From a virus, in the UHGV virus genome UHGV-0049167: a stretch of DNA of 64,000 bases; one strand, given 5' to 3'. Both the position numbers and the translations under genes were made by a program. Positions 2,265 through 56,200 of this stretch are shown here, piece by piece. Within the stretch, counting starts at the first letter, position 1; each line of letters opens with the position of its first letter. The notes beneath the pieces are model-generated. The model saw nothing but the letters and a program-made list of their open reading frames with translations, did no database searches and was not told the DNA's origin.

Positions 2265-3368
2265 ATGAGACGGATAAACGTAAGGCCGCGCAACGGCTAC
2301 AAGCAAAAAATAGAGGAACTGGGCTTCTGTTTCCATGAGGGCTATTGGAAAGAGGAGGCTTGCTACGAGTTTGGCATGGCGGAGATTGAAGCCATCGAAA
2401 AGGCGACCAACGAATGCTATGCCATGTGCTGCGATGCCGTCCAGCACATGATAGACAGCGAAACGTTCCCAATGGACGGCATACCGCAAAGGCTGAAAGA
2501 CGCCATCGTGGCTTCGTGGGAGAAAGACGACCTGTCTCTATACGGAAGGTTCGATTTTGCTTTCGACGGCAATACGCCCAAGCTGCTGGAGTTCAACGCA
2601 GACACCCCAACATCGCTGCTTGAATGCTCCGTGATACAATGGGATTGGAAGCAAGAGGTGTTCCCCTCGTGCGACCAGTTCAACGGCATACATGAGGCTC
2701 TGGTGCAGAGCTTCCGCGACATACACGGGCGGTATGGCTTCGGAAAATACCACTTCGCCTGCTGCCGCGAAAACCTCGAAGACGAGGAGACCTTGCAATA
2801 CATATTGTCCGCCGCGATGGAGGCAGGGCTTGACGTGGCCGAAGTTTCAATGGAACAAATGCTCCTTGATGATGGCGTGTTCCGTACAGCAAACGGCGAC
2901 AGGGTGGAGTGCTGTTTCAAGTTATACCCATGGGAGTGGATGATGACCGAAAGCCCGGAGGGTTGCATGGCCGACACAGTGTGGATAGAGCCTCTTTGGA
3001 AGTCGCTAATGTCAAACAAACTCCTGCTAAGGGTACTTTACGACCTATATCCCGACTCGCCCTACATACTGAAATGTCAAAACGCCCCCAACGGATTGAA
3101 ATCTTACTGCAAAAAGCCGATATTCGGTCGTGAGGGAGCAAACGTGGTGCTTGTCAAGGATGGCTCTGTACTTGAACAGACTGGCGGTGAATATGGAAAC
3201 GATGGATATGTCTACCAGGAAATTGCCGACATACCATGCTTCGATGGCAAATATCCAATAATCGGCTCGTGGGTGATAGGCGGCGAGGCCGCCGGCATGG
3301 GCATCCGCGAATCGTCAACACGGATAACGGACAACATGAGCGAGTTCATTCCCCACATAATAAAGTAA
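2265..3368 (+). CDS. glutathionylspermidine synthase (GspS) family ATP-grasp-like amide ligase
   Basis: 367 aa; motif RFDFAFDGNTPKLLEFNADTPTS and overall length match my recollection of GspS/YgiC-type proteins. Confidence 0.75.
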   Translation: MRRINVRPRNGYKQKIEELGFCFHEGYWKEEACYEFGMAEIEAIEKATNECYAMCCDAVQHMIDSETFPMDGIPQRLKDAIVASWEKDDLSLYGRFDFAFDGNTPKLLEFNADTPTSLLECSVIQWDWKQEVFPSCDQFNGIHEALVQSFRDIHGRYGFGKYHFACCRENLEDEETLQYILSAAMEAGLDVAEVSMEQMLLDDGVFRTANGDRVECCFKLYPWEWMMTESPEGCMADTVWIEPLWKSLMSNKLLLRVLYDLYPDSPYILKCQNAPNGLKSYCKKPIFGREGANVVLVKDGSVLEQTGGEYGNDGYVYQEIADIPCFDGKYPIIGSWVIGGEAAGMGIRESSTRITDNMSEFIPHIIK

Positions 3369-8956: not shown

Positions 8957-9838
8957 ATGAACAACACCACAACGTCAACGGGAGCCACAGCCGCTCCCGC
9001 ACAGAAACATTCAAGCATCCAGTCGCTTATGAACAGCCCGGCTGTAATGGCAAAGATAAGCAAGTGTCTCGGAACGGAGAAGAAAGCCGCCGCTTTCGCC
9101 AGCTCGGTAATATCGATAGCGACAGGCAGCGCGCAGCTGCGTGACTGCAATCCCACCACCATATTGGGAGCGGCTATGGTAGCCGCCACCCTCGACCTTC
9201 CGATTGTACCCACGCTCGGCATGGCATATATTGTCCCTTATAAAGGACAGTGTCAGTTCCAGATAGGCTACAAGGGGCTTATAGAGCTTGCCGAGCGCAG
9301 CGGAGTCTTCAGGAACATAATCGACGAGGTCGTATACGAGGGACAGCTTATGAGGAAGAACAAGTTCACCGGAGAATACGTCTTCGACGAGGACGCCAAG
9401 AAGTCCGACACCGTAATCGGCTACATGGCACGCTTCGACCTTACCAACGGCTTCTCAAAGACCATCTACTGGAGCAAGGAAGAGGTGGAGAGGCACGCCA
9501 GAAGATTCTCACAGGCTTACAGCAAGGGATACAGCACCCCATGGTCGACAGACTATGATACAATGGCGAGAAAGACCGTCCTTAAAGCCCTCTTCGCGAA
9601 ATATGCGCCCAAGAGCATATCGTATGCCCTGCAGACGGCAATCACTTTCGACCAGTCAGTCAGCGCTCCCAAACACACCGACAATATTTCCGAGGATGTG
9701 CTCGAGCTGAACTCTTTCGACGTGGTCTATGCTGACAACGACAGCAACGAGGCTGCTGTGGAAGCAAGGCAGGAGGCTGTACAGGAGCAGAAGAAGGCTG
9801 TCAGGGCAAAAACGGATGAAACACCGAAACTGTTATGA
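8957..9838 (+). CDS. recT: RecT-family single-strand annealing recombinase
   Basis: 293 aa; segments LGMAYIVPYKGQCQFQIGYKGLIELAERSG and size fit RecT family as I recall it. Confidence 0.7.
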   Translation: MNNTTTSTGATAAPAQKHSSIQSLMNSPAVMAKISKCLGTEKKAAAFASSVISIATGSAQLRDCNPTTILGAAMVAATLDLPIVPTLGMAYIVPYKGQCQFQIGYKGLIELAERSGVFRNIIDEVVYEGQLMRKNKFTGEYVFDEDAKKSDTVIGYMARFDLTNGFSKTIYWSKEEVERHARRFSQAYSKGYSTPWSTDYDTMARKTVLKALFAKYAPKSISYALQTAITFDQSVSAPKHTDNISEDVLELNSFDVVYADNDSNEAAVEARQEAVQEQKKAVRAKTDETPKLL

Positions 9839-11937
9839 ACAGATACGCCGCATACAGCCGTGAGCAGATAGAAGAGCTGCAATCCCATTACCTCATTGAC
9901 TCGTGGTCGTACTCTAAGGTGGCGACATTCGCGCGCAACGAGAAATCCTTTGAGAAGCAGTACGTCTACTACGACAAGGAGAAGCGCAGCGTCTCGTCCA
10001 TAGCGGGCAACGCCTACCACGAATCATTGAGGCTGTACTTCACAACCTTGAAGCAGGGCGGCACGGAGATTTCCTTGCCCGAGCTGGAGGAGTCAGCCTT
10101 CTCTTACATAGACAATGTTCCGGCGAACGAGTGGAAGCCGTCAAAGACATGTCCCACGGTAGAGGAGTGCCGTATCAAGGCATTCAAGTCCGTATCGTCA
10201 TTGCTGCGCAATTTCTACGGTGAGCGCACGGTCTATACTGATTCCATCGGAGAAGTTCTCGGTGTGGAGCTTTCCTGCCGCGAGTTCCTTACGGTCAACG
10301 GTGTGGATATACCGTTGCCGTGCAATGCGGTAATAGACCTTGTGTTCCGACATAAGGACGGACGTGTGATAATAGTGGACCACAAGACGCGCTCACGCTA
10401 TACGGATGAGGAGGAGGTCGCCTTCACTTGCGGCAAGCAGGCGGTGACTTATCTTCTCGCCTACGAGGCTAAGGAGGGCATTACTGCGGATGAGGTATGG
10501 TTCGTTGAGAACAAGGAAAGCGTGAACAAGAACGGCTCTCCGCAACTCGCAAGACAGGTCATGACTATGGATACGGACAGCCGCCGCCTTTATGAGGCGT
10601 TGCTTTACGAGCCGCTCCGCCGCATGGTGGAGGCAGTGTCCGACCCGGACTATGTGTTTGTTGCCAACGACACGGACAGCCTTTGCGACCGTGGCGCGCT
10701 GTTCAGCTTCTGGGCAAAGACCATGATAGCCGAGGTGTCAGACTTCGACATACCCGAGAATAAGAAAGAACTTATCACAAGACGTCAGCGCAAGATACGC
10801 GACGCGTCCCTTGCCGTGATAAGCCCCAAGACAATAAGCCTTTTCAAGAAAAAGGCGGCATCATTCATACAATATGATTTAACAGATACAGATATGAGCA
10901 ATCCGGAAAAGATAGAGCATGTGCTGCGTACGTTCGGCATACTCACGCAGGTGGCTCACGAGATGCAGGGTCATTCCTCGTGCACCTATCTGCTTGAGGC
11001 GAGCGCGGGAGTGAAAATCAGCCAGATTTCGAAATACAGGCTCGATATAGCCAATGCCCTCAATGTGCCATCAGTGAGAATAGGTGACAACCTCGTGGTT
11101 TACGAGGGCAAGTCATACCTTCCCGTCGAGGCTCCGGTAAAGGGCGGAGGCATCCTGTATTGGGACGTGAAATACCTTGAGGACAAGAACCGCATACCTC
11201 TCGGTGTGGACAATTTCGGAAATGTGATATGTTGGGACATCCACAATCATGCCACACCGCACATGCTTATATGCGGAGCCACAGGCAGCGGAAAATCCGT
11301 AAGTATAATAAGTACTGTCGAATACGCCCTTGAGGCAGGCATTAATGACATAACGATATTCGACCCGAAATACGAGTTCTGCGGTTACGCCTCGCGTCCC
11401 GGAGTCAAGGTCTACAATGAGATAGAGGACATAGAGGAGCAGATGCGGCTATGCGTCGAAGACATGCAGAGCCGTGCAAGAACCGGAGTCCATCAGCTTA
11501 AACTGATAGTGTTCGACGAGTTCGCGGATGCGGTGGCGTCGGCAAAGTCAGGTGCGGAGCTTGATATAAAGGAAATGGTCGAGGTCGGACAGCGGAAGGG
11601 TGATTTCGGCATGCTTGTCCCAAAAATGGAACTGAGGACGACAGGAAGGCTCAAATCGCTCGAGGAGAACCTGAAAATGCTGTTGCAGAAGGGACGCTCG
11701 CTCGGCTTCCGCATAATCGCCGCGACGCAGCGTGCGTCCGCCAATGTCATAACAGGTGACGCGAAGGTTAACTTCCCTGTGCTTGTATGCTTCCGCGTGC
11801 CTAAAGAGATAGACTCGAAGGTCGTCCTTGACGAGCCTGGGGCGGAAACCCTTAATGGCAAGGGCGACGGACTGATAAAAAGTCCCGAATACTTCGGACT
11901 CGTACGTTTCCAAGGATTTTATAAACCAAACCCATAA
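9835..11937 (+). CDS. fusion protein: N-terminal PD-(D/E)XK nuclease domain + C-terminal FtsK/SpoIIIE-like P-loop ATPase
   Basis: 700 aa; nuclease-like IDLVFRH...IIVDHKTR; Walker A LICGATGSGKS, Walker B LIVFDEF, FtsK-like IIAATQRASANVITGD; ATGA overlap with recT. Confidence 0.7.
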   Translation: MNRYAAYSREQIEELQSHYLIDSWSYSKVATFARNEKSFEKQYVYYDKEKRSVSSIAGNAYHESLRLYFTTLKQGGTEISLPELEESAFSYIDNVPANEWKPSKTCPTVEECRIKAFKSVSSLLRNFYGERTVYTDSIGEVLGVELSCREFLTVNGVDIPLPCNAVIDLVFRHKDGRVIIVDHKTRSRYTDEEEVAFTCGKQAVTYLLAYEAKEGITADEVWFVENKESVNKNGSPQLARQVMTMDTDSRRLYEALLYEPLRRMVEAVSDPDYVFVANDTDSLCDRGALFSFWAKTMIAEVSDFDIPENKKELITRRQRKIRDASLAVISPKTISLFKKKAASFIQYDLTDTDMSNPEKIEHVLRTFGILTQVAHEMQGHSSCTYLLEASAGVKISQISKYRLDIANALNVPSVRIGDNLVVYEGKSYLPVEAPVKGGGILYWDVKYLEDKNRIPLGVDNFGNVICWDIHNHATPHMLICGATGSGKSVSIISTVEYALEAGINDITIFDPKYEFCGYASRPGVKVYNEIEDIEEQMRLCVEDMQSRARTGVHQLKLIVFDEFADAVASAKSGAELDIKEMVEVGQRKGDFGMLVPKMELRTTGRLKSLEENLKMLLQKGRSLGFRIIAATQRASANVITGDAKVNFPVLVCFRVPKEIDSKVVLDEPGAETLNGKGDGLIKSPEYFGLVRFQGFYKPNP

Positions 11938-17267: not shown

Positions 17268-18119
17268 ATGGAACGGGAAATAGGAGAGATATTCGAGTAC
17301 CGTGGCGAGTGGTATCAATGCATCGGGGCTCAAAAAAACGAAACAGGTAATTTGTGCAAACACTGTGATATGCGCTGTTCTCTTATAAGAAAATTCAAGG
17401 CATCTGAATGTCGTGCGGATTATCGTTCTGACTGTAGATACGTCATCTTCAAGAAGCTTGAGCATGTAGGCGACCCTTACCCGTTATACGACCACATCGT
17501 GCAGCGTTACGCAGGAGTGAAATTCCCCGTTGTCCTGACCGGAAAGCGGTTCATCAACTGCAACGCGTTCAACAACACCGTTGACATCGAAGTTGAACAA
17601 GACAAAACAAACAAAGAAGATATGGAAACAAACGAAAAGACAATTACAGTCCCTGAAGGCTGGGAGTTCGACCACCTGGACGAACGAGGCAACATCGTGC
17701 TGAAAGAGAAGAAGAAAGAGCTGCCCAAGACGTGGCTGAAATGCCTGTGTAGCATCAATGACGTGGAATTGATAGAAGAAGATAGCGAAGTTTATAAATG
17801 CCTTATAAGTGAATTGTCCGATGACGGGCGACTGTTTGGCGATAGCGACAGAAACATGTTGCCGCAAGGTCTCGGCAAGTCCATGCTCGCCCTCTGCCAG
17901 CTTCTCGTCTGCCGCAACGCCTGGTGGAAGCAATTGGGGTGGAAGCCTTATTGGACGGATGATAAAATGAAATATTGCATTAGTTACAAAGCAAATAAGA
18001 AAGAAAAGAACTCTTATTGGACGGTGAGCCGGATATTGGCTTTCCCCACCCCCGAAGTCCGCGACCAGTTCTTAGACACATTTGGTGACCTGATTGAAGA
18101 AGCAAAGGATCTGCTATGA
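17268..18119 (+). CDS. hypothetical protein
   Basis: 283-aa ORF. Confidence 0.45.
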   Translation: MEREIGEIFEYRGEWYQCIGAQKNETGNLCKHCDMRCSLIRKFKASECRADYRSDCRYVIFKKLEHVGDPYPLYDHIVQRYAGVKFPVVLTGKRFINCNAFNNTVDIEVEQDKTNKEDMETNEKTITVPEGWEFDHLDERGNIVLKEKKKELPKTWLKCLCSINDVELIEEDSEVYKCLISELSDDGRLFGDSDRNMLPQGLGKSMLALCQLLVCRNAWWKQLGWKPYWTDDKMKYCISYKANKKEKNSYWTVSRILAFPTPEVRDQFLDTFGDLIEEAKDLL

Positions 18120-18322
18120 GTGATTTATTTAGCAATGCTGACACCATTCAGCCGCAAGAATCAACCTTAGAAACGTGCCGCACTTGTATTCACCGCCAGC
18201 GGTGGGAGTGTGGTAGCAAGGTAATATCCTACTGCCGTGTGCGTAAGAGTAACCGCACTTTCAATGGATTACAGAAAGTGAAGTGCAACCAACAGGCGTG
18301 TAGCCAATATGTAAAGATATGA
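18116..18322 (+). CDS. small Cys-rich protein
   Basis: 68 aa; CRTCIHRQRWEC...C. Confidence 0.4.
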   Translation: MSDLFSNADTIQPQESTLETCRTCIHRQRWECGSKVISYCRVRKSNRTFNGLQKVKCNQQACSQYVKI

Positions 18323-18600
18323 AAAGAAGTGAATATAAAGTGGGTGAGTTCCTATATGGAATTCCAACAAGTGAAGAATCTGCGAAATACCACCCCGAAA
18401 ATCAAAGGGTATTCATCCATAACGGATATGTAGATGGTGACGGATACGGCATTTTGATTGGATGGAATGACGGTATAATCAAGAAAAGTACGGGATGGGG
18501 AAACTTCTGTTGGGGTGCGAATGTAAGGAAAGCCACAGATGAAGAAAAGGAGTCTTTTATGAAAGCTTTAATGAATCAAGATGTAATAAGATATTACTGA
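18319..18600 (+). CDS. hypothetical protein
   Basis: 93-aa ORF, ATGA overlap. Confidence 0.4.
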   Translation: MKRSEYKVGEFLYGIPTSEESAKYHPENQRVFIHNGYVDGDGYGILIGWNDGIIKKSTGWGNFCWGANVRKATDEEKESFMKALMNQDVIRYY

Positions 18601-18602
18601 TT

Positions 18603-18803
18603 ATGAAACAGAAAGTGACGATGTACCAAGCCGTGTGCGACGGGTGCGGAAGTAAGCATGGCTATGAATTTAGTGAAGGTATGGCAAGGTATATGGCGAA
18701 GATGTGCGATTGGGAAGAAATCGACGGCAAACTCTACTGCCCCGACTGCGTGGAGTGGGACGAAGAAACCGATAGTTACAAACCTAAAAAGGAGAAATTA
18801 TGA
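18603..18803 (+). CDS. small zinc-ribbon-like protein
   Basis: 66 aa; CDGCG...CPDC. Confidence 0.45.
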   Translation: MKQKVTMYQAVCDGCGSKHGYEFSEGMARYMAKMCDWEEIDGKLYCPDCVEWDEETDSYKPKKEKL

Positions 18804-19015
18804 ACATAGAAACCGTTAATTTAGTGTTGGAAATTGTAAAGTTAAAAAATCAATTAGATGACTTGCTAAGTGTTTTTGAATTATAATACCCCTACCAAAA
18901 TTACAATTACAAATGATACCGGTATTAGCAGGTCATTTGATGTTGAAATGATAACAGAGCTGAAATCGTATGCTTATGCAAGGGATAAAGAATTAGATAA
19001 AAAACTTGAAGAATT

Positions 19016-19201
19016 ATGAAGAGCATTTGGATAGCGAGAGATATGTTTGGCGACCTATGCATCTCATCCGAAAAGCCCGTTAGGAACAATGGATGTTGGG
19101 AGATATGTGATGGTATAGAGATATCAGACTCTGATTGGTTTCCCGACCTCACATGGGATAGCGAGCCAATCGAGTTGGTAATAAAAGAAAAGGAGGAATA
19201 A
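19016..19201 (+). CDS. hypothetical small protein
   Basis: 61-aa ORF. Confidence 0.35.
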   Translation: MKSIWIARDMFGDLCISSEKPVRNNGCWEICDGIEISDSDWFPDLTWDSEPIELVIKEKEE

Positions 19202-19212
19202 AAATTGCTTGG

Positions 19213-19401
19213 TTGGCAAAATGTATAGATGAAACTGAATACATCTTTGATAGAGAACCTTATAAAGAGGAAGGTTATTGGTATAATCCTCGTAGATGGG
19301 ATGGTGGTACAATTAAGCTGCCAAAAGGAACTATTGAGAAGATTATTGGTAAAGAGTTTAAATGGAATGATAACCCTGTAGAAATAAAAGAGGACAAATA
19401 A
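19213..19401 (+). CDS. hypothetical small protein
   Basis: 62-aa ORF. Confidence 0.35.
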   Translation: MAKCIDETEYIFDREPYKEEGYWYNPRRWDGGTIKLPKGTIEKIIGKEFKWNDNPVEIKEDK

Positions 19402-19706
19402 TGAAATACAGAAAGAAACCGGTTGTTATCGAAGCCGTGCAGTGGGCTGGCAATAACGAAGAAGATATAAAACGCTTTGCACCTGTTGCGGCGGTGTTCA
19501 AGTACATCGTGAGCAACGACAAAAGCACGTCATTGTGCATGGAGAAACCGCAGAGCGGATATATTGAAGCCGTGACATTGGAAATAAACACCTTGGAGGG
19601 CGTGATGCAAGCCTCACTCGGCGATTACATCATCCGTGGCGTGAACGGCGAGTATTACCCATGCAAGCCCGACATCTTCGAGAAAACATATGAAAAAGCG
19701 GAATGA
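19401..19706 (+). CDS. hypothetical protein
   Basis: 101-aa ORF. Confidence 0.4.
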   Translation: MKYRKKPVVIEAVQWAGNNEEDIKRFAPVAAVFKYIVSNDKSTSLCMEKPQSGYIEAVTLEINTLEGVMQASLGDYIIRGVNGEYYPCKPDIFEKTYEKAE

Positions 19707-19708
19707 TA

Positions 19709-19867
19709 ATGAGCAGGAATGAGATAATAATCCTCGTCGGCGTGCTATGTGTGTCGGTTGCCGTATGGCTTATGTATGACTTCGCCTGCTCCTTGATGAC
19801 ATTTGGCTTGTCTGCAATCCTTTACGGCATTGCAAAAGCCGCAATGCTACGAATGGAGGACACATGA
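19709..19867 (+). CDS. small membrane protein (52 aa, not in ORF track)
   Basis: ATG at 19709; translation MSRNEIIILVGVLCVSVAVWLMYDFACSLMTFGLSAILYGIAKAAM... Confidence 0.3.
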   Translation: MSRNEIIILVGVLCVSVAVWLMYDFACSLMTFGLSAILYGIAKAAMLRMEDT

Positions 19868-20001
19868 CCGACTTTGAGCGTGAGGCGTACCACAATGAGA
19901 TTGACTTCCTGCAAGCCGAGGTCGACAGGTACCGCCAGCAGAACAAACAACTGATGGAATTTATATTCAAACTTAAAAACAGAAATAGAAATGGGATGTG
20001 A
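19864..20001 (+). CDS. small coiled-coil protein (45 aa, not in ORF track)
   Basis: ATGA overlap with previous small ORF; MTDFEREAYHNEIDFLQAEVDRYRQQNKQLMEF... Confidence 0.3.
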   Translation: MTDFEREAYHNEIDFLQAEVDRYRQQNKQLMEFIFKLKNRNRNGM

Positions 20002-20563
20002 CATACATTTACGCCTTGAAAAAAGACTCAAAAAAGAAAAGGTGTGGAACAGATACTACACAGAGAAATGCGAGTGGCAAAATTGCGGAATAATCCCTTT
20101 TGACAGAACTTGGGGTGACCGGATATATGGTATGTTCGCTGTTTTGGCAAACGTGCGCAATCGATGGAATATCGAGCATATTCCCATACGTGGATTGCCG
20201 GATGACATCTGCCCTGCCACCTTGGAATGTTATGGTAAACCAATAAAGGATGAAATCAAAGACGCTTATGAAGACGAGAACTTTTATCTTACTTCCAAAG
20301 CAGAAGATTGGGTGAAAGACGGATTGAGCAGATATTACGTAGTGAGAGGGCGCAAGTTCTGCTCTTGCCCAGATTTCCATAGCGCGAACTGGTGTACGAC
20401 GCGTGAAATGGAAGATTGCATAAACAAGGTGTTCAAAGACGAAAAAGGAAACTTCAAACCGGAGGCAGAGCCTTATGAATGGCTTGCCCTGCTCGGCGCG
20501 ATGAAAGGTTATGAAAGCACCGGCGAATATGAGTGCAGGGCTATTTTTTTGTTTGACAATTAA
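19991..20563 (+). CDS. hypothetical protein
   Basis: 190-aa ORF. Confidence 0.45.
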   Translation: MGCDIHLRLEKRLKKEKVWNRYYTEKCEWQNCGIIPFDRTWGDRIYGMFAVLANVRNRWNIEHIPIRGLPDDICPATLECYGKPIKDEIKDAYEDENFYLTSKAEDWVKDGLSRYYVVRGRKFCSCPDFHSANWCTTREMEDCINKVFKDEKGNFKPEAEPYEWLALLGAMKGYESTGEYECRAIFLFDN

Positions 20564-20576
20564 AAGATTACGTAAA

Positions 20577-20862
20577 ATGGAACAAGACAACGTTATCGCA
20601 AAGGAATGCTCGCACTGCCACCGCACGTTGCCCGTCACGGAGTTCTACAAGAAGAAAGGCACGTCCGACGGTCTGCAATACTACTGCAAGCAGTGTCAAA
20701 TTGAGTTTAACAACGCCTACAAATGCAAGAAGAAGGCTTTCGGGGGGGGGGAATCCCGAACTCTCACGCTTCACGCCACGTCAGCTTATGGAGGAACTTA
20801 AAGCCCGCGGCTATACTGGAGAACTGAAATATGTACAAACAATAAATCTTGAAAGATTATGA
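20577..20862 (+). CDS. zinc-ribbon protein interrupted by a G10 tract; full-length product needs a 1-nt frame change at 20742-20751
   Basis: Frame 0 gives CSHCHRTLPVTEFYKKKGTSDGLQYYCKQCQ...GGG then early stop at 20801; +1 frame continues NPELSRFTPRQLMEELKARGYTGELKYVQTINLERL and ends at 20862 in ATGA overlap with next gene. Confidence 0.45.
20742..20751. repeat. G10 homopolymer tract inside coding sequence
   Basis: cgggggggggga read directly. Confidence 0.9.
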
Positions 20863-21815
20863 CACAGACCGGCATAATCGTCCTTCCGCATCAAATCAAA
20901 ATGAAAGCGTGTGAAATACAACTCGACTACGACACCGTAATGTCAAAGGTAAGCCGCCCGCTTGCAAGGAAGCTGGTACACTCCGTGGAGCTTTTGCGGA
21001 AGTCGGAGAAAATGGCGTTGCGCCTCGACCCCGAAAACGGCTTTTACCTTGCGTTCAGCGGCGGCAAGGACAGCCAATGCCTCTACCATGTCGCAAAGCT
21101 GGCCGGTGTCCGCTTCAAGGCTCACATGAACCTTACGAGCATAGACCCGCCCGAAGTCATCCGCTTCGTCAAGACGCAATACCCCGATGTGGAGCTAATC
21201 AAACCACGGATGAGCATTTACGAAATGGCTAAGAAAAAGCACATCTTGCCTACAAGGATTTTGCGCTGGTGTTGCGCCGAGTTCAAGGAAACGTCAGGCG
21301 TTGGCAAAATAACACTTGTCGGTGTGAGAAAAGAAGAAAGCGCACGGCGAGCCAAACGTGAGGAAATATCCACAGAGATAAAGGGCAAGCGCACTGAGGA
21401 AACCTTTGACCAATGGAGCGAACATGAGGAGAGCATGGTTGCGTGTGTCGGCGGTAAGGACAAAATCCTTGTATCGCCCATAATCTATTGGACGGAGCGC
21501 GACGTGTGGGAGTTCCTTAACGTGAACGGCATACCACACTGCGAACTCTACGACGAGGGTTATACACGCATTGGCTGCATCTGTTGCCCTATGTCGCAAC
21601 CATGGCAAAAAGCCAAAGAGATTAAACGTTGGCCGCACGTCAAACGCAATTGGATAAAGACAATCCAATGGCTGATAGACAACGGATATATCGACCACAA
21701 TTTCAACGACGCTGAAACAGGCTTTAGGTGGTGGATAAGCGGCAAGGGCTACAAGCAGTTCTACGCCGACGAGTTCCTGCAACAGAAAATTGAATTTAAA
21801 GACAAAGACCAATGA
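20859..21815 (+). CDS. phosphoadenosine phosphosulfate (PAPS) reductase family protein (PP-loop ATP pyrophosphatase fold)
   Basis: PP-loop motif YLAFSGGKDSQCLYHV; 318 aa. Confidence 0.7.
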   Translation: MTQTGIIVLPHQIKMKACEIQLDYDTVMSKVSRPLARKLVHSVELLRKSEKMALRLDPENGFYLAFSGGKDSQCLYHVAKLAGVRFKAHMNLTSIDPPEVIRFVKTQYPDVELIKPRMSIYEMAKKKHILPTRILRWCCAEFKETSGVGKITLVGVRKEESARRAKREEISTEIKGKRTEETFDQWSEHEESMVACVGGKDKILVSPIIYWTERDVWEFLNVNGIPHCELYDEGYTRIGCICCPMSQPWQKAKEIKRWPHVKRNWIKTIQWLIDNGYIDHNFNDAETGFRWWISGKGYKQFYADEFLQQKIEFKDKDQ

Positions 21816-21976
21816 AAGCGAGACATTGCGGCGAGTGCCGCCACTTCAAGAACGAGGACATCAACGGCGACGGCTGGTGCGGGAAGTACGACGTGGGCAG
21901 AAGATGTGGCAATGAGTGTTTGGCAAAGGAAAACAAAGGAAATACAAGGAAAATTTCCTCTAAAATCACAAGATAA
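21812..21976 (+). CDS. small Cys-rich protein (54 aa)
   Basis: ATGA overlap; MKARHCGECRHFKNEDINGDGWCGKYDVGRRCGNEC... Confidence 0.35.
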   Translation: MKARHCGECRHFKNEDINGDGWCGKYDVGRRCGNECLAKENKGNTRKISSKITR

Positions 21977-22009
21977 AATGGAGGGAAAGAATATTAATAC
22001 AAATAAGAT

Positions 22010-35572: not shown

Positions 35573-38500
35573 TCATAAATATATGTTTCCGTTCGTGTCC
35601 GTGTCATCATCGTCAATGCGATTAATCTGTATCATCTGCACCCTGTCATAATTCATGTATACGGCTGTTGTCGTTATCATGCTGCCGTAGTATACGGTGC
35701 CGCTTCCCGGTTGTACGATTCCGATGTTCGAGAATCTGTATACATTGCGCGAGCACCATTGTCTGGAGAAATCCACCTTTTCCGCATAGTCATCCTCATA
35801 TCGCGTATAGTCCATTGGCGGTGTGTCCATAGGCGAGCCTATCATGAACGATTCCGGATTGTCCTGCGCCCACATTCCTGTGACAGCCTGTGCCGTGGTC
35901 ACATTACCCTGCTCCATGAACCATCTGCCGTTCGCGGCTCTTGCAATCTCCGGAGTGGAGGCGTAGTCACCGCTGAGATATGTGTCGTTTACGCGCCCTG
36001 CAAGATACATGTACAAAGGTGTTTTCGTGTACACATGACCATATTGGAATATGGTGTTCATTATCTGTTTGTTGCCAACGATGTCGCCTACGGTGGAGAA
36101 TGTGGCCCCTGTCAGCTGCAGGCGTCCGTATTTGCTGCTGGTCTCCCACCGTTCTTCCGAGACATCCTTGCCGGACAGTCCCCACGGTCCGAGGTCATAA
36201 AGGAACGTACCGTCATTGTCATAATAGGACAGTACCATGTATGAGCCGTTATATCCCATTTTGATGTTGGTCACACCGTTAGGGTTCTTTACCTCAATCA
36301 GTCCTCCCTTTATCTCCACATGCCCCTGTCCTTCGTCCATCGTGCGGAGCATCACACCTGTAAGGGTGCCCGCCTCGTCGATTGTGGTGACTGTCTCGCC
36401 GGAGTTGTTCTGTATCTCGAAGTTGTCGGCAGTGACCTTTATGCGCTTGTGTTCAATGTCTATCCCTGTCGCCTGCAGCTCGTCGCGCGTGATTGTCTCC
36501 GAACGCCAGTCGGTCGCCTCGCTGCCTTTCTCCAGCTTCACTCCGCATATCCAGACCTCTCCCTGTGCAGAACTGTCCGGCATGAGCCGTGCCGCTATCA
36601 GGCTCTTCCCTCCGCTTACGTCATTGCGAGTGCTCCATGTCACCTGATAACGGTTCCATCCGCTTTCAAGCGTGAACTGCACGAATCCGTCTGTCACACC
36701 TGTCTGGTTCTTCGTCCCCGGACTTGTGACCCAGTCGGTGCAGTTCGGATAGAAGTACGAGCCGATGCTGCCTGTGCCGCGCGCCCAGAATGAGAGCGTA
36801 TACTGTACGCCCGGCTCGGGCACCACGTTGCGCCATGTGATGACGTCCTTGTATGATGTCCCGGCTTCGTTCACACCGTGTGCCACGCTTATTTTTTCTC
36901 CGTAAGGTGTCGTGTATGCTCCTGCCTCTACGGTATCCTGTACGGTGCATTGGCTGAAGTCCGATGTTCCTGGAAGAAGATTCGGTCTTTTAAGCCTGTC
37001 CTCCGCGCTGAGTCCCCAGTCTGTCGCGTCCGCACCTGTCTCTATCTTGGGACGCGACACGGACGAGTATCCTGATGATATGCCCTGTATATACAGGTTA
37101 CACTGCTCTACCGACGCCACAGCCTTGTCCTGTATCCTGTGTGTGGAGCTTATGCGTCCCTCGAACGTGTCCGTGGATGTTATCTGCCTCCATGTCCCGA
37201 GATACTGCGTACTGCCGTCGGCATACCGTATCATGGGCTCCATGCCGATACGTCTGTTGCCTGATGCTGCCGGAACCGCAGATACGGTCTTGACAAGACA
37301 TGATACGGTTATTGTCTTTCCGCGCAGGCTTGACACATCCCCGATTGTGTAGACCTTGTTCCCGTTCCCTGTCAGGAATATGTCAGGAGTGGTCACCATG
37401 TTTCCGTCCTTTGCCCCAAGATAGCCGACTTTAAGGCTTATGCTGTCCGTCTCAGCCTTAATCTGCGATGAGAGTGCCATGGACGATACAGTGAAGGACA
37501 GGCGGCAGCTCACACTGCGGGTCTCCCCGCCCAGCGTTGCCTGTGCCGTAATCTGTACCCATCCCGCTCCGTATGGCACCGAACCTCCCCAGTCTGCCGT
37601 ATATGTCCCTATTGCGGTTATTGTAACCTGTGCCCCGTTGCGTGACGCAAGACAGTGCATAGGCTCTATGGCGGTAATTGTGACAGTCATCTCGCGCGTG
37701 CCGAGCCATGCGCGCAGACGTGATGTCGCATCCTGCATGCTCACCACACCGTCACTGTCAGCCTCCAATGTTATGGCGGCAGGGTCAAGTGCCCATGAGA
37801 AGCCGTCCTGCCCGTCCGTGCCGGGTTCACCGTCACTTCCGTCCGCTCCGTCCTCACCGCGTATCCGTGTCCACTTATATGAGGTAACGCTTGTCGGGTC
37901 ATATGAGTTGAAGTCTACGCATTGCCCGAGCCACGCGCCCGGTGTCTCACCGTTGTTTGCTGTGAACGTCTTTCCCCCGTCGTCGGAATATTTGATGTGA
38001 AGGTAGCTTGTCTTTCCGTCCGTACCGTTGGTTCCCGGTATTCCCTGCTCCCCATCATACCCTTGGAAGCGTGACCACGTGTAGTCCGAAGGGTCGTCGC
38101 TGTCTGCCTCCGTGAAGTCAACGTATGTGCCGATGTAGAGGTTGGGAACTTCTGACATTGGAGTCCCGTTGGAGTTTGCCGAGTATTTAACATGGAAATA
38201 TGTCGTACGACCGTCCTCTCCTGCGGGTCCCGGAACGCCCTGCTCCCCCTTGTCTCCTTTTTCTCCGGTATCACCCTTTATCTTTGACCATTTATAATCG
38301 GACGGTGTTCCGCTGTCTGTAGGATTCGTGTCTGTAAGGACTCCAATCCAGTCACCGCTGTCCTCTCCGTTGTTTCCGGTAAAGGTGACGCCTCCGTCGT
38401 TAGAGTATTTGATATGGAGATAATATGTCGTGCCGTCAGTCCCATTCACGCCCGGCAAGCCCTGTTCTCCCTGTATGCCTTCAAATCTTGACCAAGTGTA

Positions 38501-41500
38501 GTCAGATGCATCAGTACTGTCTGTTTCTGTAAAATCGACGTAAGTACCTATGTATTTGTCAGGCGTCTCGGTCATGGGCGTACCGCTCGCGTTCGCAGAA
38601 TACTTTATGTGGAAGTAGCTTGTACGTCCGTCCGCACCGGGTGTTCCGGGTATGCCTTGCTCGCCTTGCGGTCCTTGTAATCCTTGAAGCCCCTGCTCGC
38701 CTCTATCACCTTTGTCTCCTTTGTCGCCCTTTATCTTCAACCAAGTGTATTCTGACGAGTCTGTGCTGTCGTCAGCGTTGGTGTCTGTCATGACGCCAAT
38801 CCACGCGCCCGGTGTCTCACCGTTGTTTGCTGTGAACGTCTTTCCCCCATCATCGGAGTATTTGATGTGAAGATAATATGTAAGCCCGTCCACACCGTTG
38901 GTTCCCGGTATTCCCTGCTCCCCATCATACCCTTGGAAGCGTGACCACGTGTAGTCCGAAGGGTCGTCGCTGTCTGCCTCCGTGAAGTCAACGTATGTGC
39001 CGATGTAGAGGTTGGGTGTCTCGGTCATGGGATTTCCGTTCTCGTTTGAAGAATATTTCACATGGAAGTATGTGGTCTTTCCGTCATGACCGGGTGCCCC
39101 GTCTTTACCGGCTACACCGGGAATACCCTGCTCTCCTTGCGGACCCTGCGGTCCCTGTATGTTTCCGGCATTCACCCACTTGTCACCGTCCCACACCCAT
39201 AAGTCTCCGTCTATGAGCCATGCGTCACCGACCGCGTTGCCGTCCTGCGGGAGTTCGGAAGAGTCATTCTTCGAACCTTTCAGATTGAATGAAGTCCCGT
39301 CCTCTCCACGGAATTTGCTCCATGTATAGTCGGAAGGATTGTCGCTTTCCTGTGCGCTCTCTTTGTTTACGGCTATGCCTATATATTTTGTCGTGTCTGA
39401 AGGGGTCTGATACATAGGCTCACCGTCCGGACTGTCAGAGTAGGCAATCCATGTATAGAGAGTCTCACCGTCCTCGCCCTTTGCTCCCGGCACTCCGTCC
39501 TCGCCTTTTATCTCTGACCAGGTATAGTCCGATGGATTGTCGCTTTCCTGTGCGGTATTCTTGTTATATGCGAATCCAATGTATTTCTTTCCGGAAGGGT
39601 CGTTGGATATGCCTCCTCCTTCAGCGGTGTCGGAATATCTTATCCATGTGTAAAGTGTCTTCCCGTCCTCACCGGACGGTCCTGGTACACCCTGTGGTCC
39701 CATGTCACCTTTCTCACCCTGCTGTCCGTCCATACCTCTGAAACGTGCCCATGTATAATCAGAGGGGACATCGCTCGCTGTAGGGTTAAAATCCACGCGT
39801 GTACCGATAAATACATCCGGAGTCTCACTCATGGGCACACCGTCAGGATTCGGTGAATATCTTATGTGAAAATATGTGGTTTTCCCGTCTGCTCCGTCTT
39901 CTCCAGCCGGACCCTGTATTTTTCCTGCGTTTGCCCATGCGCTGCCGTCCCATACCCACAGATAGCCGTTCACGAGATACGCGTCTCCTGTGCTGTTCCC
40001 TGTTGGCGGCAGCATGCTCTCGTCATCAACGCTTCCCTTCACAGTGAATGACGTGCCGTCCTTTCCGTCAGTACCTTTAATCCTTGACCATGCATAGTCG
40101 CTGTAGACGAGAGCCACGTCGCTCTCCGTGCGGTCTGTGCATATGCCGAGCATGAGCCAGTCTTTTGCCGTGCTCTGGGATTTGTCCTTTGTCCAGTCGT
40201 CCGGACCGTTTCCCCATGCAAGGTGCGTGTAGCTGACAAGACCGGAAGTGTCCACATCCAGCTCGCCTCTTATCTTATTGCCGTTAGCCGCGAACCATGT
40301 CGTGCGGTACTGGCTTAGAGAAAAACTTGTGATTCCGTTGTATTGCGCGAATGACGGACTCTCCAGCTCGGTATCCGGAGTGGAGTGGGCGGCTATTATT
40401 ATCGCATGGCTGCGCGCTGTGTCGTCACCACGGTGTCCGCACAGACAAACGCTGTCACCCTCTGCAGGCTCAAGGCTGTCAGCCGCGCACGTGGCTTCAG
40501 ACACTTCAATCCAATGGCACTTTCTGTCCTCACCGTCAATGTTCCGTGTTCCGCTCCCTGTTGCCGTGACAAGTCTCCACCATAGTCTGTTTCCTGCATC
40601 ATATGATGTCCCCTCGGCAAGATTGGATGTCATTGCCAGAGCCTGGTCTCCGACCTTCCACATGTTCTGCACGGCTCTGCCGTCGCTGTCCTCCGCCAGC
40701 CACCACAGACGCCATGCTCCGCTTATTCTTTCGACAGAGCGTACCGTGCAGTTAGCAGCGGACAGTATCAGTTGACCTCCGACGCTGTTCAGCTCATCTA
40801 TGACAAGCTCGAAGAAATGTGCCCTTCCTGTCACGGTCAGCGTTTTCATTGTGGCTTCGTCGGCAAGAAGTTTCTTCAGCCGTGCGGTACCGTCCGCATC
40901 TATGCCGTAGTCTCCGTCTCCCACAAGCAGCCCTTTGAGGAATGTTATAATATCCAAGGCTGTGTCCGGACTGTCTTTCCGCAGAAAATACTTCGCGCAT
41001 TGTGCTAAAATGTCACCACGCATGCCATAAGTCAGGGATGTAAGTATCTCTGTTTTTATGGAATCGAGCTGTGCTCTGAATGAGGATTGAGACACGGTCA
41101 GGGTGTCTGTTAAATCCACACTTATTTCATAAAGTATGCTATCATCGGCTTTACAAGTATAGTTGCTGACATACAGAAGATGCTCTTCTTGATTATATCT
41201 TACTGTCAGACGTGTATTTTCATTCAGCAATGAGGTGAAGTCCTCATTTAATGCCAGATATACACGGGAAAATTTTATTGAATATGTGAATTTCTCATCA
41301 TTATTCCCTTTCATGTAAGCAATAAGAGCCGCATCCAGTCTTTTTTCCGCTTCCCGTATGTAGGATTCAGGAAGAGAAATGCCAGTTATGACAAATGTAT
41401 CGCCTATTGACGGACGATATCCTTGTGCCGCGTTCGGCATAATGACACCAAAGGTATCTGTTTCTTTTTTTACGGCTATCCATACTTCATATTCGCTGGT

Positions 41501-53266: not shown

Positions 53267-56200
53267 ATGAGCGGAGAAATTGGAAGCGCACTTGTAATAC
53301 CTGAAAGCGTACTTGACTCATTTAAAGATGCTGATGAATGGTTGGCAAAATTACAAAAGAGGATTTATGATACCGGTGATATTTCCGGAAGGTCTTTTGG
53401 TAAAATGGTAAATGGGACAACCCGTTTTTCCTCGGTGCTTGACGCTGTCATACAAAAGCTGAAGGAAGTGGAGAAATCGTCGGTAAACGCCTCTACGGCA
53501 TTTAATGCCATGAGCGGGGCAAAATTCGGGAATGCGGCAACGCAGGCGGAGAAGCTGAACACAAGTATAGTGAGAGCAGCGGAAAACATAGAGAGGCTCA
53601 CATCTGCTACAAGAGACAGACAAGGCGATTCCGGACTGAAGAACATCAGTGTTACATTAGATGCTCTATGGAAAAAATTAAAAGATACCCGCGTAGAGCT
53701 GGAGCTGTATTGGAAGTATATATCTACAGGTAAAAAGGACAATGTCGAATTTGGGCAAAAGGGACTTAATGAAGCATCCAAGACTGCTGATGCGCTTATG
53801 CGACAAATCACTGCTCTTGACGCTGCCTATAAACAGCTACGGAGGAGTTCAGCCAACGTAAATGACATGAAAGGGCAGACGCTCGCGGACATGCGACAGT
53901 CTGACATTTTGAGGAAAATGTCAGAATATTACCGTGATATGGAACGGTCGTCTGCTGCTGCGGCAAAAGAAGCCGAGAAGAGAGCCAGGTCGGAGGAAAA
54001 AGCGGCAAAAGCCCAATCTAAAATATACCAGCAACAGAACTATGCCCGTAATACCACATATGCGGGAGCGTTAAGCTTTGCTGAGGACGCAAATACGATA
54101 AACCGACGTACCCAAGCCATTAAATACTTGCAGGAGGCTCGCGCAGCACTGTCTGCCACAGACAGTGAGTATGCATCCAAGCTTCGTACCCTTAATGACC
54201 GTATCAAGCAGTTGAATGCCGCAAATAACGAGGCTATAGCGGGAAGCAAAAACCTTGTGAACGAGCATCGTCGTCTGTTCGATATAACCGGGCAGCTGTC
54301 ACGGTCGTTTGCGCTCCTGTTTTCAGTGTCGCAGATACGTGGATATATTGCAAATGTCGCTACGGTACGTGGGGAGTTCGAGATGTCACAACGCTCACTT
54401 GAAGCGATACTGCAAAACAAGACACAGGCTGACGAAATTTTTGCCAAGACGGTTGAACTTGCCGTTAAATCGCCTTTTCGCATAAAGGACTTGGTTCAGT
54501 ATACACGGCAGCTTGCCGCCTACCGTATAGAATCAGACAAACTGTTTGATACCACCAAACGCCTTGCTGATGTCTCTGCAGGTCTTGGCGTGGATATGCA
54601 GAGACTTATTCTTGCTTACGGACAGGTAAAGGCTGCCGCATATCTGCGCGGTTCGGAAGTACGCCAGTTCACGGAGGCAGGTGTGAATATGTACGGGGAA
54701 CTGCAACGTTATTTTCAGGAGGTCAAAGGTGAGGCATATACCACAGCGCAAATTGTTGACATGATAAGCAAGCGCATGGTGACGTTCCAAGACGTGGAAG
54801 CTGTCTTTGAGAGAATGACAAGTGACGGAGGCATCTTCTTCAACATGCAGGAGATACAGGCTGAAACCTTGCAGGGCAAGATAAGCAATTTCCAGGACTC
54901 TCTTGATGTCATGTTAAATTCCATAGGCAAGGCAAACGAAGGTCTCTTGAAGGGTGCGATAGATGGAGCGACGGCATTGCTTGAACATTGGGAGGAACTT
55001 GTGGACGTCGGCAAGGCACTTGCAGCCATACTTCTTACAATCAAAGCACGTTCAATGTTCCTGAACTCGACGTTGGGAATCGCTTTTACACAAGCAGACA
55101 CAAAAGGTCTCGCGCGTTACAAAGCCTTGTTTGTCAACGCTTTCACCAGCATGGGAAATGCTGTAAAATCTTTTGGGACAATCGCAAAAACATCTCTTGT
55201 CGGACTCGGAATTTTTGCTGCCATCGAATTGATAACAACCGCAATAGGTAAATGGAGCGATTATAATAAAAAAGTCAAGGAGGCGCAGGAAGATACCATA
55301 AAGACAAGAGAAGAAATAAGGAAAATATCAAGTGCTTATAATGACCTCGCGGATACGGCAACAACCGCTGACACAAAGGATTTGCAGAAAAACATTGACA
55401 AACGTAGGATTGCCCTGCAAAGGCTCATTGACAGCGCGGCGAAAGACGGTCTGGTATTAAAGATAAACGTGGAGGAGGTAAAAGATGAGGATTTAAACAA
55501 GACGTTTGACAGTGTAGAGAAGAAATATAAGGATTTCGTTGATGAACTGGAGATAATCAGGCGGAACTATGCCGAGAGTAACAGAAAATTGGTCTTTGAT
55601 GGAATTGACGATGACCGTGAAGATTACAAAAACGCTGTTCTTGACTTTCTTTCACAATCGTCCAAAATAGAAACAGCCGTTGCTATAGTGAATGCCAATT
55701 ATGACAAGGCAACGGCAGCCACAAAGAAATATTTTGACGAGATAAGGGCAGGGCAGAAAGCCGGCGAATCGAACCTTGATTATATGCGGCGAATGGCAGC
55801 AGCCTTGCAGCAAATGAATGTGCATTTAGGAGGAAATATTTATGCAACTCCAGGATGGCTGGACGGAGTGGAGGGGATGGTAGACATTGTGGACACCTAC
55901 AATTCTGTAGAGAAAGCCGGGGCTGCGTTGGAGAAAGAGTACGAGAAAGTGTTCGGGGACTTGCGTGATAAATACAAAAACGACCCGATTAAGATAAAAG
56001 CCGCTATTGATAAGGTCGCAGCTGAAGAGGATTGGAGCCAATATGACCGGGAGTTGGCTTACAGACATTTTGGAATCAATGTCAAGATAAACAAGGACAC
56101 TATGGAGCAGGAGGTATCGTGGGTTGATGACTACCTCTCGAATTTCTTTGCCAAGAAAAAGTACGGAGTCAGCCTTGTTGTAAAGGAAGTCACGGATGGA

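Follow-up and report, generated by a model that had tools for sequence, protein, structure and literature searches.

A hypervariable G tract in a zinc-ribbon gene of gut Bacteroidota phages: a probable slipped-strand contingency locus

Contingency loci are already a known concept in phages, where they were recognised recently (Campylobacter phages in 2021, T-even phages in 2025) from examples that are few and experimental. Campylobacter Fletchervirus phages carry hypermutable G7–G11 tracts in receptor-binding protein genes (Sorensen et al. 2021, Cell Rep 35:109214, as cited in PMC12823448 and PMC12633550), and these tracts are cited in the same two papers as varying in length within populations too. 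T2 and T4 have contingency loci of their own (the A9 run of agt, and rIIA), described in a 2025 preprint by Gomez, Barrick and Waters (PMC12633550) that also mentions earlier, unstudied polyG tracts in the methylase gene of BPP-1 and in a PB1-like baseplate gene. The bacterial poly-G and poly-C contingency loci of Neisseria, Haemophilus and Campylobacter go back to Moxon et al. 1994, as that work is cited in PMC12633550 (reference 3). Here we describe a further case, a run of ten G (G10) on the plus strand of UHGV virus genome UHGV-0049167, of which a 64-kb stretch, hereafter the window, was analysed. The run interrupts a small zinc-ribbon gene that precedes a gene of the PAPS-reductase family. 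As judged from comparison with related loci, it is probably a slipped-strand contingency locus, of which the window would display one of the two OFF states.

The likeness to the Fletchervirus tracts is close: in both cases G7–G11 homopolymers lie in a coding region of a phage genome, their lengths vary between populations, and the gene is either in frame or truncated. The Fletchervirus tracts, however, affect receptor-binding genes and, according to the papers that cite them, were shown experimentally to alter host recognition, whereas the present tract lies in an early-region gene for a zinc-ribbon/helix-turn-helix-like protein of Bacteroidota phages; moreover, the homopolymer at this site is made of G, C or A depending on the lineage. 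With T2 and T4 the locus shares homopolymer slippage and +/-1 frameshifts in a non-structural gene, which are reversible in those phages and read as bet-hedging against host defence (PMC12633550); here reversibility would be expected by analogy. By contrast, the T2 and T4 loci are mostly short A/T runs (at least 6 nucleotides (nt)), dozens per AT-rich genome, with variants at ~1e-4 to 1e-3 in reads (PMC12633550), while we are dealing with one very long G/C run, the only one in its genome, conserved across deep divergence and, at the consensus level, out of frame in a large proportion of natural samples. The bacterial loci resemble it in tract type and length, in frame-based ON/OFF states, in a tract state decoupled from phylogeny and in interrupted, 'locked' alleles, but differ in that the present gene belongs to a virus or prophage and encodes a small, putatively intracellular protein of DNA-binding type, not a surface structure or a restriction-modification subunit.

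The run consists of exactly ten G at positions 20742–20751 (plus strand) and encodes a Gly-Gly-Gly loop between two protein modules. It is the sole G or C run longer than 5 nt in the window, where 0.01–0.03 runs of at least ten G are expected by chance; such a tract is far beyond chance. Nor is it explained by a requirement of the protein, since GGG, at 15%, is the least used of the Gly codons here and none of the nine other Gly-Gly-Gly tripeptides in long open reading frames (ORFs) is encoded by G9. Note that one run of G by itself is not enough for an intramolecular quadruplex.

The original prediction, made from the letters of the window, held that the run breaks the zinc-ribbon ORF and that nine or twelve G would carry it on into an ATGA overlap with the next gene; both statements proved correct. 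Indeed, with ten G, the ORF that starts at the ATG at 20577 (20577–20801, plus strand) encodes 74 amino acids (aa). The first 58 are native residues, made up of the zinc ribbon and a helix and ending in the tract-encoded Gly-Gly-Gly, and the ORF reads MEQDNVIAKECSHCHRTLPVTEFYKKKGTSDGLQYYCKQCQIEFNNAYKCKKKAFGGG ahead of a 16-residue out-of-frame tail, ESRTLTLHATSAYGGT; overall, this frame reads ...KKAFGGGESRTLTLHATSAYGGT before a premature TAA at 20799–20801 (plus strand), 58 nt 5' of the next ATG. The start at 20577 (MEQDN...) is common to the 94-aa homologs. The continuation in the +1 frame, which comprises a conserved 36-residue C-terminal module (NPELSRFTPRQLMEELKARGYTGELKYVQTINLERL) and a stop (20752–20862, plus strand), is read only with G9 or G12. 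Its stop codon, TGA at 20860–20862, overlaps the downstream ATG at 20859 to form an ATGA junction (20859–20862, plus strand) that is the same in related loci L058 and L138–L144.

Simulation of other tract lengths gave three classes of product: 94 or 95 aa for G9 or G12, ending inside the ATGA overlap; 73–75 aa for G7, G10 or G13, ending 58 nt before the next ATG; and 82 or 83 aa in the third frame for G8 or G11, ending 32 nt before it. Natural proteins match all three classes (P0107, P0020 and P0019, respectively). The accompanying remark that ATGA coupling is used throughout this genome was roughly right: such overlaps are common locally (17268–18600, 19401–20001, 21812) and make up 7 of the 43 same-strand junctions in a crude ORF call.

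To compare tracts, 180 related loci were fetched, and the comparisons rest on their consensus sequences. The relatives came from protein-level search; megablast of window positions 19900–22000 against 50,697 phage records found none. The comparison of tract lengths among related phages, proposed together with the original prediction, revealed G8, G9 and G10 within the same strain and a variable tract across the family. Over the 4,262 positions at which locus L058 (metagenome contig ULPR01050941) aligns with the window (17577–21838), there is no mismatch and a single gap, where L058 has G9 in place of G10, and identical flanks surround G8 in L138 (SRR11646716) and G10 in L139 (ERR7451759). At the protein level, the exact 94-aa form occurs on a 54-kb contig and the truncated 74-aa form on 75-kb and 127-kb contigs; other contigs, too, hold an identical 74-aa product family (P0020, P0113, P0114).

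Could the tenth G be a homopolymer consensus error on a true G9, as the original prediction also envisaged? Long G/C homopolymers are error-prone on several platforms, this single base is the only difference from L058 in 4.26 kb, and the cultured LoVEphage-like genomes discussed below are all in frame. Such an artefact nevertheless seems very improbable. G10 or its product family is present in other assemblies (L139, P0113, P0114), as is G8 in L138; majority-level errors would be needed in about two-thirds of the IMG/VR contigs; alleles are shared across samples; and read errors could not produce the compensatory changes that lie outside the tract. As a general explanation, sequencing error is thus contradicted by the recurrence of G10, by the stability of 6–7-nt A/T runs and by compensation, whereas for this single contig it could still apply; even with this call wrong, the locus remains a hypervariable tract.

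The position of the homopolymer is shared family-wide, after the DGLQxxCKxC motif of the ribbon and before FTPRQL. G7–G11 is found there in at least six sub-lineages with unrelated flanks: the window strain has TTC-G8/9/10-AAT and the LoVEphage-like phages CTCC-G7 to G11-AATTTG, while other sub-lineages have ATT-G9 or G6, AAC-G9, CTCCGGGA-G8/9/10, CTCC-G9/10-TAATTTG or CGTAA-G10-TATG. In a sister lineage from IMG/VR (L021, L023, L024, L053–L056), the tract is a poly-C of C7–C12 (C7, C8, C9, C10, C12) at ~3120–3140 in each locus, which encodes Pro residues and is in frame in some loci and out of frame in others. BS162P1, a cultured Bacteroides phage (L145, OP172706.1; homolog at 2495–2768), has A9 at ~2613–2621 in the same linker, out of frame (+1), and its deposited coding sequence (2490–2768) starts at a GTG in the C-terminal frame, so that the zinc-ribbon half is misread. 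On this comparison, the base of the tract has changed (G, C or A) and its position has been kept. Frame status tracks run length in every tract-bearing locus examined; a number of lineages are devoid of any tract (L008, L059, L097, L109–L128, L133). A window-lineage copy with G7T, out of frame, was also found in L153 (CALUKU010000017.1), on a 66.9-kb contig binned as 'uncultured Prevotella sp.' which, given its size, may be a mis-binned phage genome rather than a prophage.

The tract is hypervariable as well as widespread. Among the tract-bearing IMG/VR loci, a set that kept all confirmed loci and is thus not ranked towards intact genes, 11 are in frame, 10 at +1 and 10 at -1 (L052, shifted without a homopolymer and probably a spurious motif pairing, was excluded from the counts). 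In an alignment of 55 LoVEphage-like loci, the G tract ranges from 5 to 11, whereas 6–7-nt A/T runs are almost invariant. The length of the tract region differs in 66 of the 95 locus pairs that are less than 0.2% diverged in their flanks, against 498 of the 620 pairs diverged by at least 5%, so that the tract changes much faster than point substitutions accumulate.

Several classes of allele bear the mark of evolution at the DNA level. Some owe their open frame to steps of 3 nt or to compensation elsewhere than in the tract, namely L064 (G11, with a T lost downstream), L067 and L069 (G9, with an A and a T lost), L088 (G7) and L096 (G6); others have an interrupted tract that is in frame all the same (L140, GGAGGGGGT; L143, G8T; P0010, GGEG; P0012, GGRG). 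Out-of-frame alleles recur identically in different samples, for example in L046–L049 (all G8) and L037–L039 (all G9). Three cultured lysogens are in frame with three different configurations (B. oleiciplenus YIT 12058, G10; B. intestinalis AF14-32, G9+A; B. acidifaciens DSM 15896, G7). The zinc-ribbon gene is also in frame in the induced phage BI-TP1 and out of frame in the LoVEphage reference genome, where the C-terminal ORF alone is annotated. As these alleles read, the length variation is real evolution, not read noise.

The full-length product is itself well represented. A search with the 94-aa fusion returned 106 relatives, and 18 clusters encode it in a single frame (93–112 aa, 72–96% identity). 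The same search returned broken copies in the frame of the window (P0020, P0066) or in the third frame (P0019, P0054), together with orphan C-terminal ORFs (P0077, P0097–P0106). Taken at the level of the predicted proteins, the fused 94-aa form is a real, conserved protein. The original prediction was to be abandoned if homologs ended at the equivalent of 20801; they run through to the ATGA overlap.

The zinc-ribbon identity proposed for the gene was borne out by a core with two CxxC pairs (C11 and C14, C37 and C40; 20607–20696, plus strand), the four cysteines of which are invariant in 72 homologs, and by a confident ribbon model. Across the same 72 sequences, the C-terminal FTPRQL..EL..RGYTG motif is invariant or nearly so, and the C-terminal frame is strongly conserved at the protein level down to ~40% identity, with many invariant residues, which points to purifying selection on the full-length protein. 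The AlphaFold2 model computed from the 72 sequences consists of a zinc ribbon and helix predicted with confidence (residues 8–55, predicted local distance difference test (pLDDT) score ~90, and >90 for residues 11–40), a low-confidence loop at the position of the tract (residues 51–60) and a short C-terminal helix (residues 67–76).

PHROG matches are limited to the N-terminal ~50 residues (~2–53), which resemble the ribbon present in HNH, endonuclease VII and Lar-like proteins (E from 1e-11 to 1e-7); comparisons with the PDB pointed weakly to PacI and Hpy99I, in both cases to the N-terminus that binds zinc. A Foldseek search of the PDB with the model gave nothing at E<=0.001, the best matches being to the zinc-binding N-terminus of Hpy99I, and Pfam and NCBIfam returned only sub-threshold zinc-finger noise for the fused protein. 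With 94 aa and no catalytic motif, the protein lacks the beta-beta-alpha-Me catalytic domain of HNH and endonuclease VII enzymes. The 'HNH endonuclease' annotation that the BI-TP1 and PV4-TP1 homologs bear in GenBank is accordingly unsupported, as their matches involve the ribbon and no nuclease domain.

This conservation bears on the possibility that the tract is a tolerated, non-adaptive mutational hotspot: a homopolymer born of slippage would lie where the loop can accommodate runs of Gly, Pro or Lys, the accessory gene being dispensable and its frameshifts nearly neutral, so that broken and intact copies drift and the window copy would simply be recently inactivated. The 11:10:10 distribution of the IMG/VR loci fits a neutral expectation, the tract lies in a low-confidence loop, some lineages are tractless (those listed above), and the gene sits among small accessory ORFs. 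We nevertheless consider this explanation unlikely, for the C-terminal frame is conserved to ~40% identity, which indicates purifying selection on the full-length protein; frame-restoring compensation exists, and all cultured LoVEphage-like copies are in frame. Furthermore, synonymous interruption would be expected at a costly site, yet pure G, C or A runs persist despite GGG being the rarest Gly codon.

What the switch would add or remove is the C-terminal module. An exhaustive search with the 36-residue module retrieved 133 proteins, the best matches being proteins of 300–700 aa with 5–9 tandem copies of a ~55-residue unit (...KQLFEEIKAxGYxGS..TV..FL...). Comparison of the zinc-ribbon family with this unit by hhalign gave a probability of 94.5% and E=7.6e-8 over 28 columns. 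The profile of the repeat unit in turn matches, over its whole length, residues 55–103 of IstA from IS5376 (8Q4D, 8B4H) with E=0.004. A direct search with the zinc-ribbon family profile found nothing; the link to IstA runs via the repeat unit. Residues 55–103 of IstA lie in what we take to be its DNA-binding N-terminal region. The module has the ...L(F/M)EE(I/L)KA-GY-G... helix-turn pattern of the N-terminal region of this IS21-family protein (IS5376; PDB 8B4H, 8Q4D) through the intermediate repeat family, but only ~28 residues align, the zinc-ribbon protein has no transposase catalytic domain, and the link is indirect and of modest significance. We would suggest, though with modest confidence only, that the switchable module belongs to a DNA-binding element of the helix-turn-helix type. 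On this view, the full-length protein would bind DNA through two parts, of which the OFF forms keep the ribbon alone.

The tandem-unit proteins form a family of their own (P0115–P0131; e.g. P0116, 666 aa), 300–700 aa long and made almost entirely of 5–9 units of ~55 residues with the consensus ...FHK.YL.KRLE....P.KQLFEEIKA.GY.G....V..FL..., related to the N-terminal region of IstA (IS21); Pfam gave only sub-threshold winged-helix matches for them. Two other assignments were discarded. A SAP/HeH identity for the C-terminal motif was considered first and gave way to the IstA-like reading, as neither Pfam (E<=1) nor the search of PDB sequences yielded a SAP match. Matches of the repeat-unit profile to PPR proteins were rejected, being sums of 10–15-residue fragments none of which is significant singly.

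Taken together, the data are best accounted for by a contingency locus that would work as follows. Single Gs would be gained or lost through slipped-strand mispairing during replication of phage or prophage DNA, at a homopolymer that would be hypermutable and maintained at the nucleotide level. The tract would encode a flexible Gly loop in a putative two-part DNA-binding protein of 94 aa, with a zinc ribbon and helix as its N-terminal part and an IstA-like helix-turn-helix fragment as its C-terminal part. In the ON state (G9 or G12), the full-length protein would be made and its stop codon would overlap the start of the next gene. In the OFF states (G10 or G8), a ribbon-only protein of 74 or 82 aa without the C-terminal module would end 58 or 32 nt 5' of the next start, which may lower translation of the abutting gene. 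A phage population would then always hold ON and OFF variants of an early-region accessory gene, a form of bet-hedging, if switching is indeed adaptive.

The locus has the hallmarks of a contingency locus: a repeat of at least ~7 nt in a coding region, polymorphism confined to the repeat, switching between full-length and truncated products, and maintenance at the nucleotide level, as recognised by pure G, C or A runs at one site in many lineages. The tract, its conservation, its length polymorphism, the frame consequences of that polymorphism and the purifying selection on the C-terminal frame are all observed here. The slipped-strand, phase-variable option of the original prediction is therefore the one that the comparative data support (G8, G9 and G10 in the same strain, three populated frames, compensated and interrupted alleles), and our best reading favours it over programmed slippage and, as a general explanation, over artefact.

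A few observations weigh against this interpretation. All five cultured LoVEphage-like genomes (the three lysogens, BI-TP1 and PV4-TP1) are in frame, and metagenome assemblies may overstate the OFF states; the metagenome locus set was itself ranked by E-value and is biased to in-frame copies. The ~1:1:1 distribution of frames in viromes is also expected from neutral drift in a dispensable gene or from noisy consensus calls in long G/C runs, the G10 of the window contig could still be a consensus error, and the IstA link is modest (E=0.004).

The original prediction also envisaged that programmed slippage controls the gene that follows the tract. This gene (20859–21815, plus strand) encodes a 318-aa protein of the PAPS-reductase family (Pfam PF01507, E=2.2e-21; phrog_424, E=1.8e-38), as originally suggested. 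The PF01507 (PAPS_reduct) score, 77.1 bits, is well above the gathering cut-off of 22.5, whereas the NCBIfam equivalogs CysH, CysD and DndC all score far below their curated cut-offs (e.g. 47 versus 165 for cysH and 16 versus 290 for DndC), and the assignment therefore holds at the superfamily level only.

In most tract-bearing lineages, the full-length frame and the gene after it either touch or overlap (ATGA, TAATG, TAAATG), but the nature of that gene varies. The neighbour is PAPS-reductase-like in the window, L058 and L138–L140, and is a 313-aa radical-SAM gene in L141 (1331–2272) and L143 (3282–4223), for which the best NCBIfam matches (MoaA-like, viperin-like) are below cut-off; it is a 178-aa radical-SAM-like protein in the LoVEphage-like phages, and elsewhere unrelated small genes are found. 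The tract thus belongs to the zinc-ribbon gene, not to the PAPS reductase, and a functional pairing of the two was rejected. Where termination-reinitiation coupling is lost, whichever gene comes next may plausibly undergo a polar effect. Within the window lineage, the slot 3' of the zinc-ribbon gene looks like a variable cargo position; across the window, L141, L143, L142 (2867–2977) and L144, it is filled by the PAPS-reductase-like gene, by the 313-aa radical-SAM gene or by a mere remnant with the same TTATGAC junction.

Programmed recoding would have the full-length protein made by +1/-2 ribosomal frameshifting or RNA-polymerase slippage, with a fixed isoform ratio controlling the coupled downstream gene. 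On a run of G9–G11, slippage of RNA polymerase and re-pairing of tRNA-Gly are plausible, out-of-frame alleles are frequent while the C-terminal frame is nonetheless intact, and stops overlap or abut the next start in most tract-bearing lineages. As in dnaX, prfB, the A-runs of insertion sequence (IS) elements and the G/GT frames of phage tail chaperones, a slippery homopolymer joins two overlapping frames of a conserved protein. Those systems, however, have a conserved shifted arrangement and usually stimulators, neither of which holds here: alleles of the window lineage are predominantly in frame, shifts in the two directions occur equally often, the flanks downstream are unrelated between lineages and the downstream gene is not conserved. 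Moreover, the interrupted in-frame alleles (L140, L143, P0010, P0012) would abolish slippage. No stable RNA structure was found 3' of the tract (fold z-scores +0.95, +1.66 and +0.22), and a structure acting as a frameshift stimulator was rejected on these values (z = +0.2 to +1.7). Programmed frameshifting or slippage therefore appears decidedly unlikely, the original proposal that it controls the downstream gene being unsupported on account of the unconserved frame state, the interrupted alleles, the lack of downstream structure and the varying neighbour. Incidental slippage of RNA polymerase could still occur on top of the DNA-level variation.

The family includes LoVEphage, which is reported to be the inducible temperate phage found most often in gut viromes and for which B. 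thetaiotaomicron, P. dorei and P. vulgatus served as sources on induction (PMC12629997). Homopolymers or frameshifts are mentioned neither there nor in the description of LoVEphage (PMC8525569). In LoVEphage and BI-TP1, as in the window, the zinc-ribbon gene lies in the early small-ORF region.

LoVEphage-like phages have a second hypervariable tract, a poly-C of C6–C12 over ~50 loci, in the 5' part of the coding sequence for a C5 cytosine DNA methyltransferase (L004, 3801–4892, tract at ~3817; L147, i.e. BI-TP1, PQ571265, 3301–4391, tract at 3317–3324; L146, i.e. LoVEphage, MW660583, tract at 3321–3328). The ATG of this gene and the stop codon of the radical-SAM gene ahead of it share a TGATG. 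With C9 or C12, a single ORF of 363/368 aa includes motif I (Pfam DNA_methylase profile positions 2–322), while C7, C8, C10 and C11 lead to a 24-aa dead end. The gene is in frame at 15 of 48 loci (~1/3) and OFF in BI-TP1, the LoVEphage reference and the three cultured lysogens; its GenBank annotation begins at an internal Met after motif I. To judge by these alleles, it looks like a phase-variable phage methyltransferase, and it parallels the agt switch of T2 and T4, agt being a DNA-modification gene.

A broader and more speculative possibility, which we put forward tentatively and regard as doubtful, is that the two tracts belong to a small island for bet-hedging, kept by positive selection in the early region of temperate gut phages of Bacteroidota that are highly prevalent (LoVEphage and its relatives, the window phage among them), in which long G/C homopolymers would independently toggle the zinc-ribbon/helix-turn-helix protein, with the coupled next enzyme, and the C5 methyltransferase. 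The coupled enzyme would be of nucleic-acid-modification type, PAPS-reductase-like or radical SAM. If so, each burst or lysogen population would mix DNA-modification and regulatory states, and the phages would be pre-adapted to differing restriction or modification-dependent defences, which would help explain their multi-species host range.

To the experimental examples known in phages, the locus adds natural-population evidence from hundreds of independent human-gut assemblies: one long homopolymer kept at one position of a gene across deep divergence, with a base that changes between G, C and A and three frames that are common in the wild. Since lysogens (B. oleiciplenus YIT 12058, B. intestinalis AF14-32, B. 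acidifaciens DSM 15896) and induced phages (BI-TP1, PV4-TP1) are available in culture, switching rates and the fitness of ON and OFF forms are directly testable. Public records split or truncate such genes, as seen from the lone C-terminal ORF of LoVEphage, the wrong frame of BS162P1 and the internal Met of the methyltransferase; annotation pipelines should flag homopolymer tracts instead of calling pseudogenes or short hypothetical proteins.

Finally, the window itself derives from a tailed phage and encodes terminase, portal, RecT, a DnaD-like loader and a phrog_200 lipoprotein; no tRNAs were found in it. It also contains two very large ORFs, one of 2,720 aa (35573–43735, minus strand) and one of 1,915 aa (53267–59014, plus strand), and genes for unusual accessory functions at 2265–3368 and 9835–11937 (both plus strand). 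A glutathionylspermidine-synthase-like gene is present (phrog_6215, E=1e-110), and a 700-aa protein combines exonuclease-like and FtsK/terminase-like ATPase matches.

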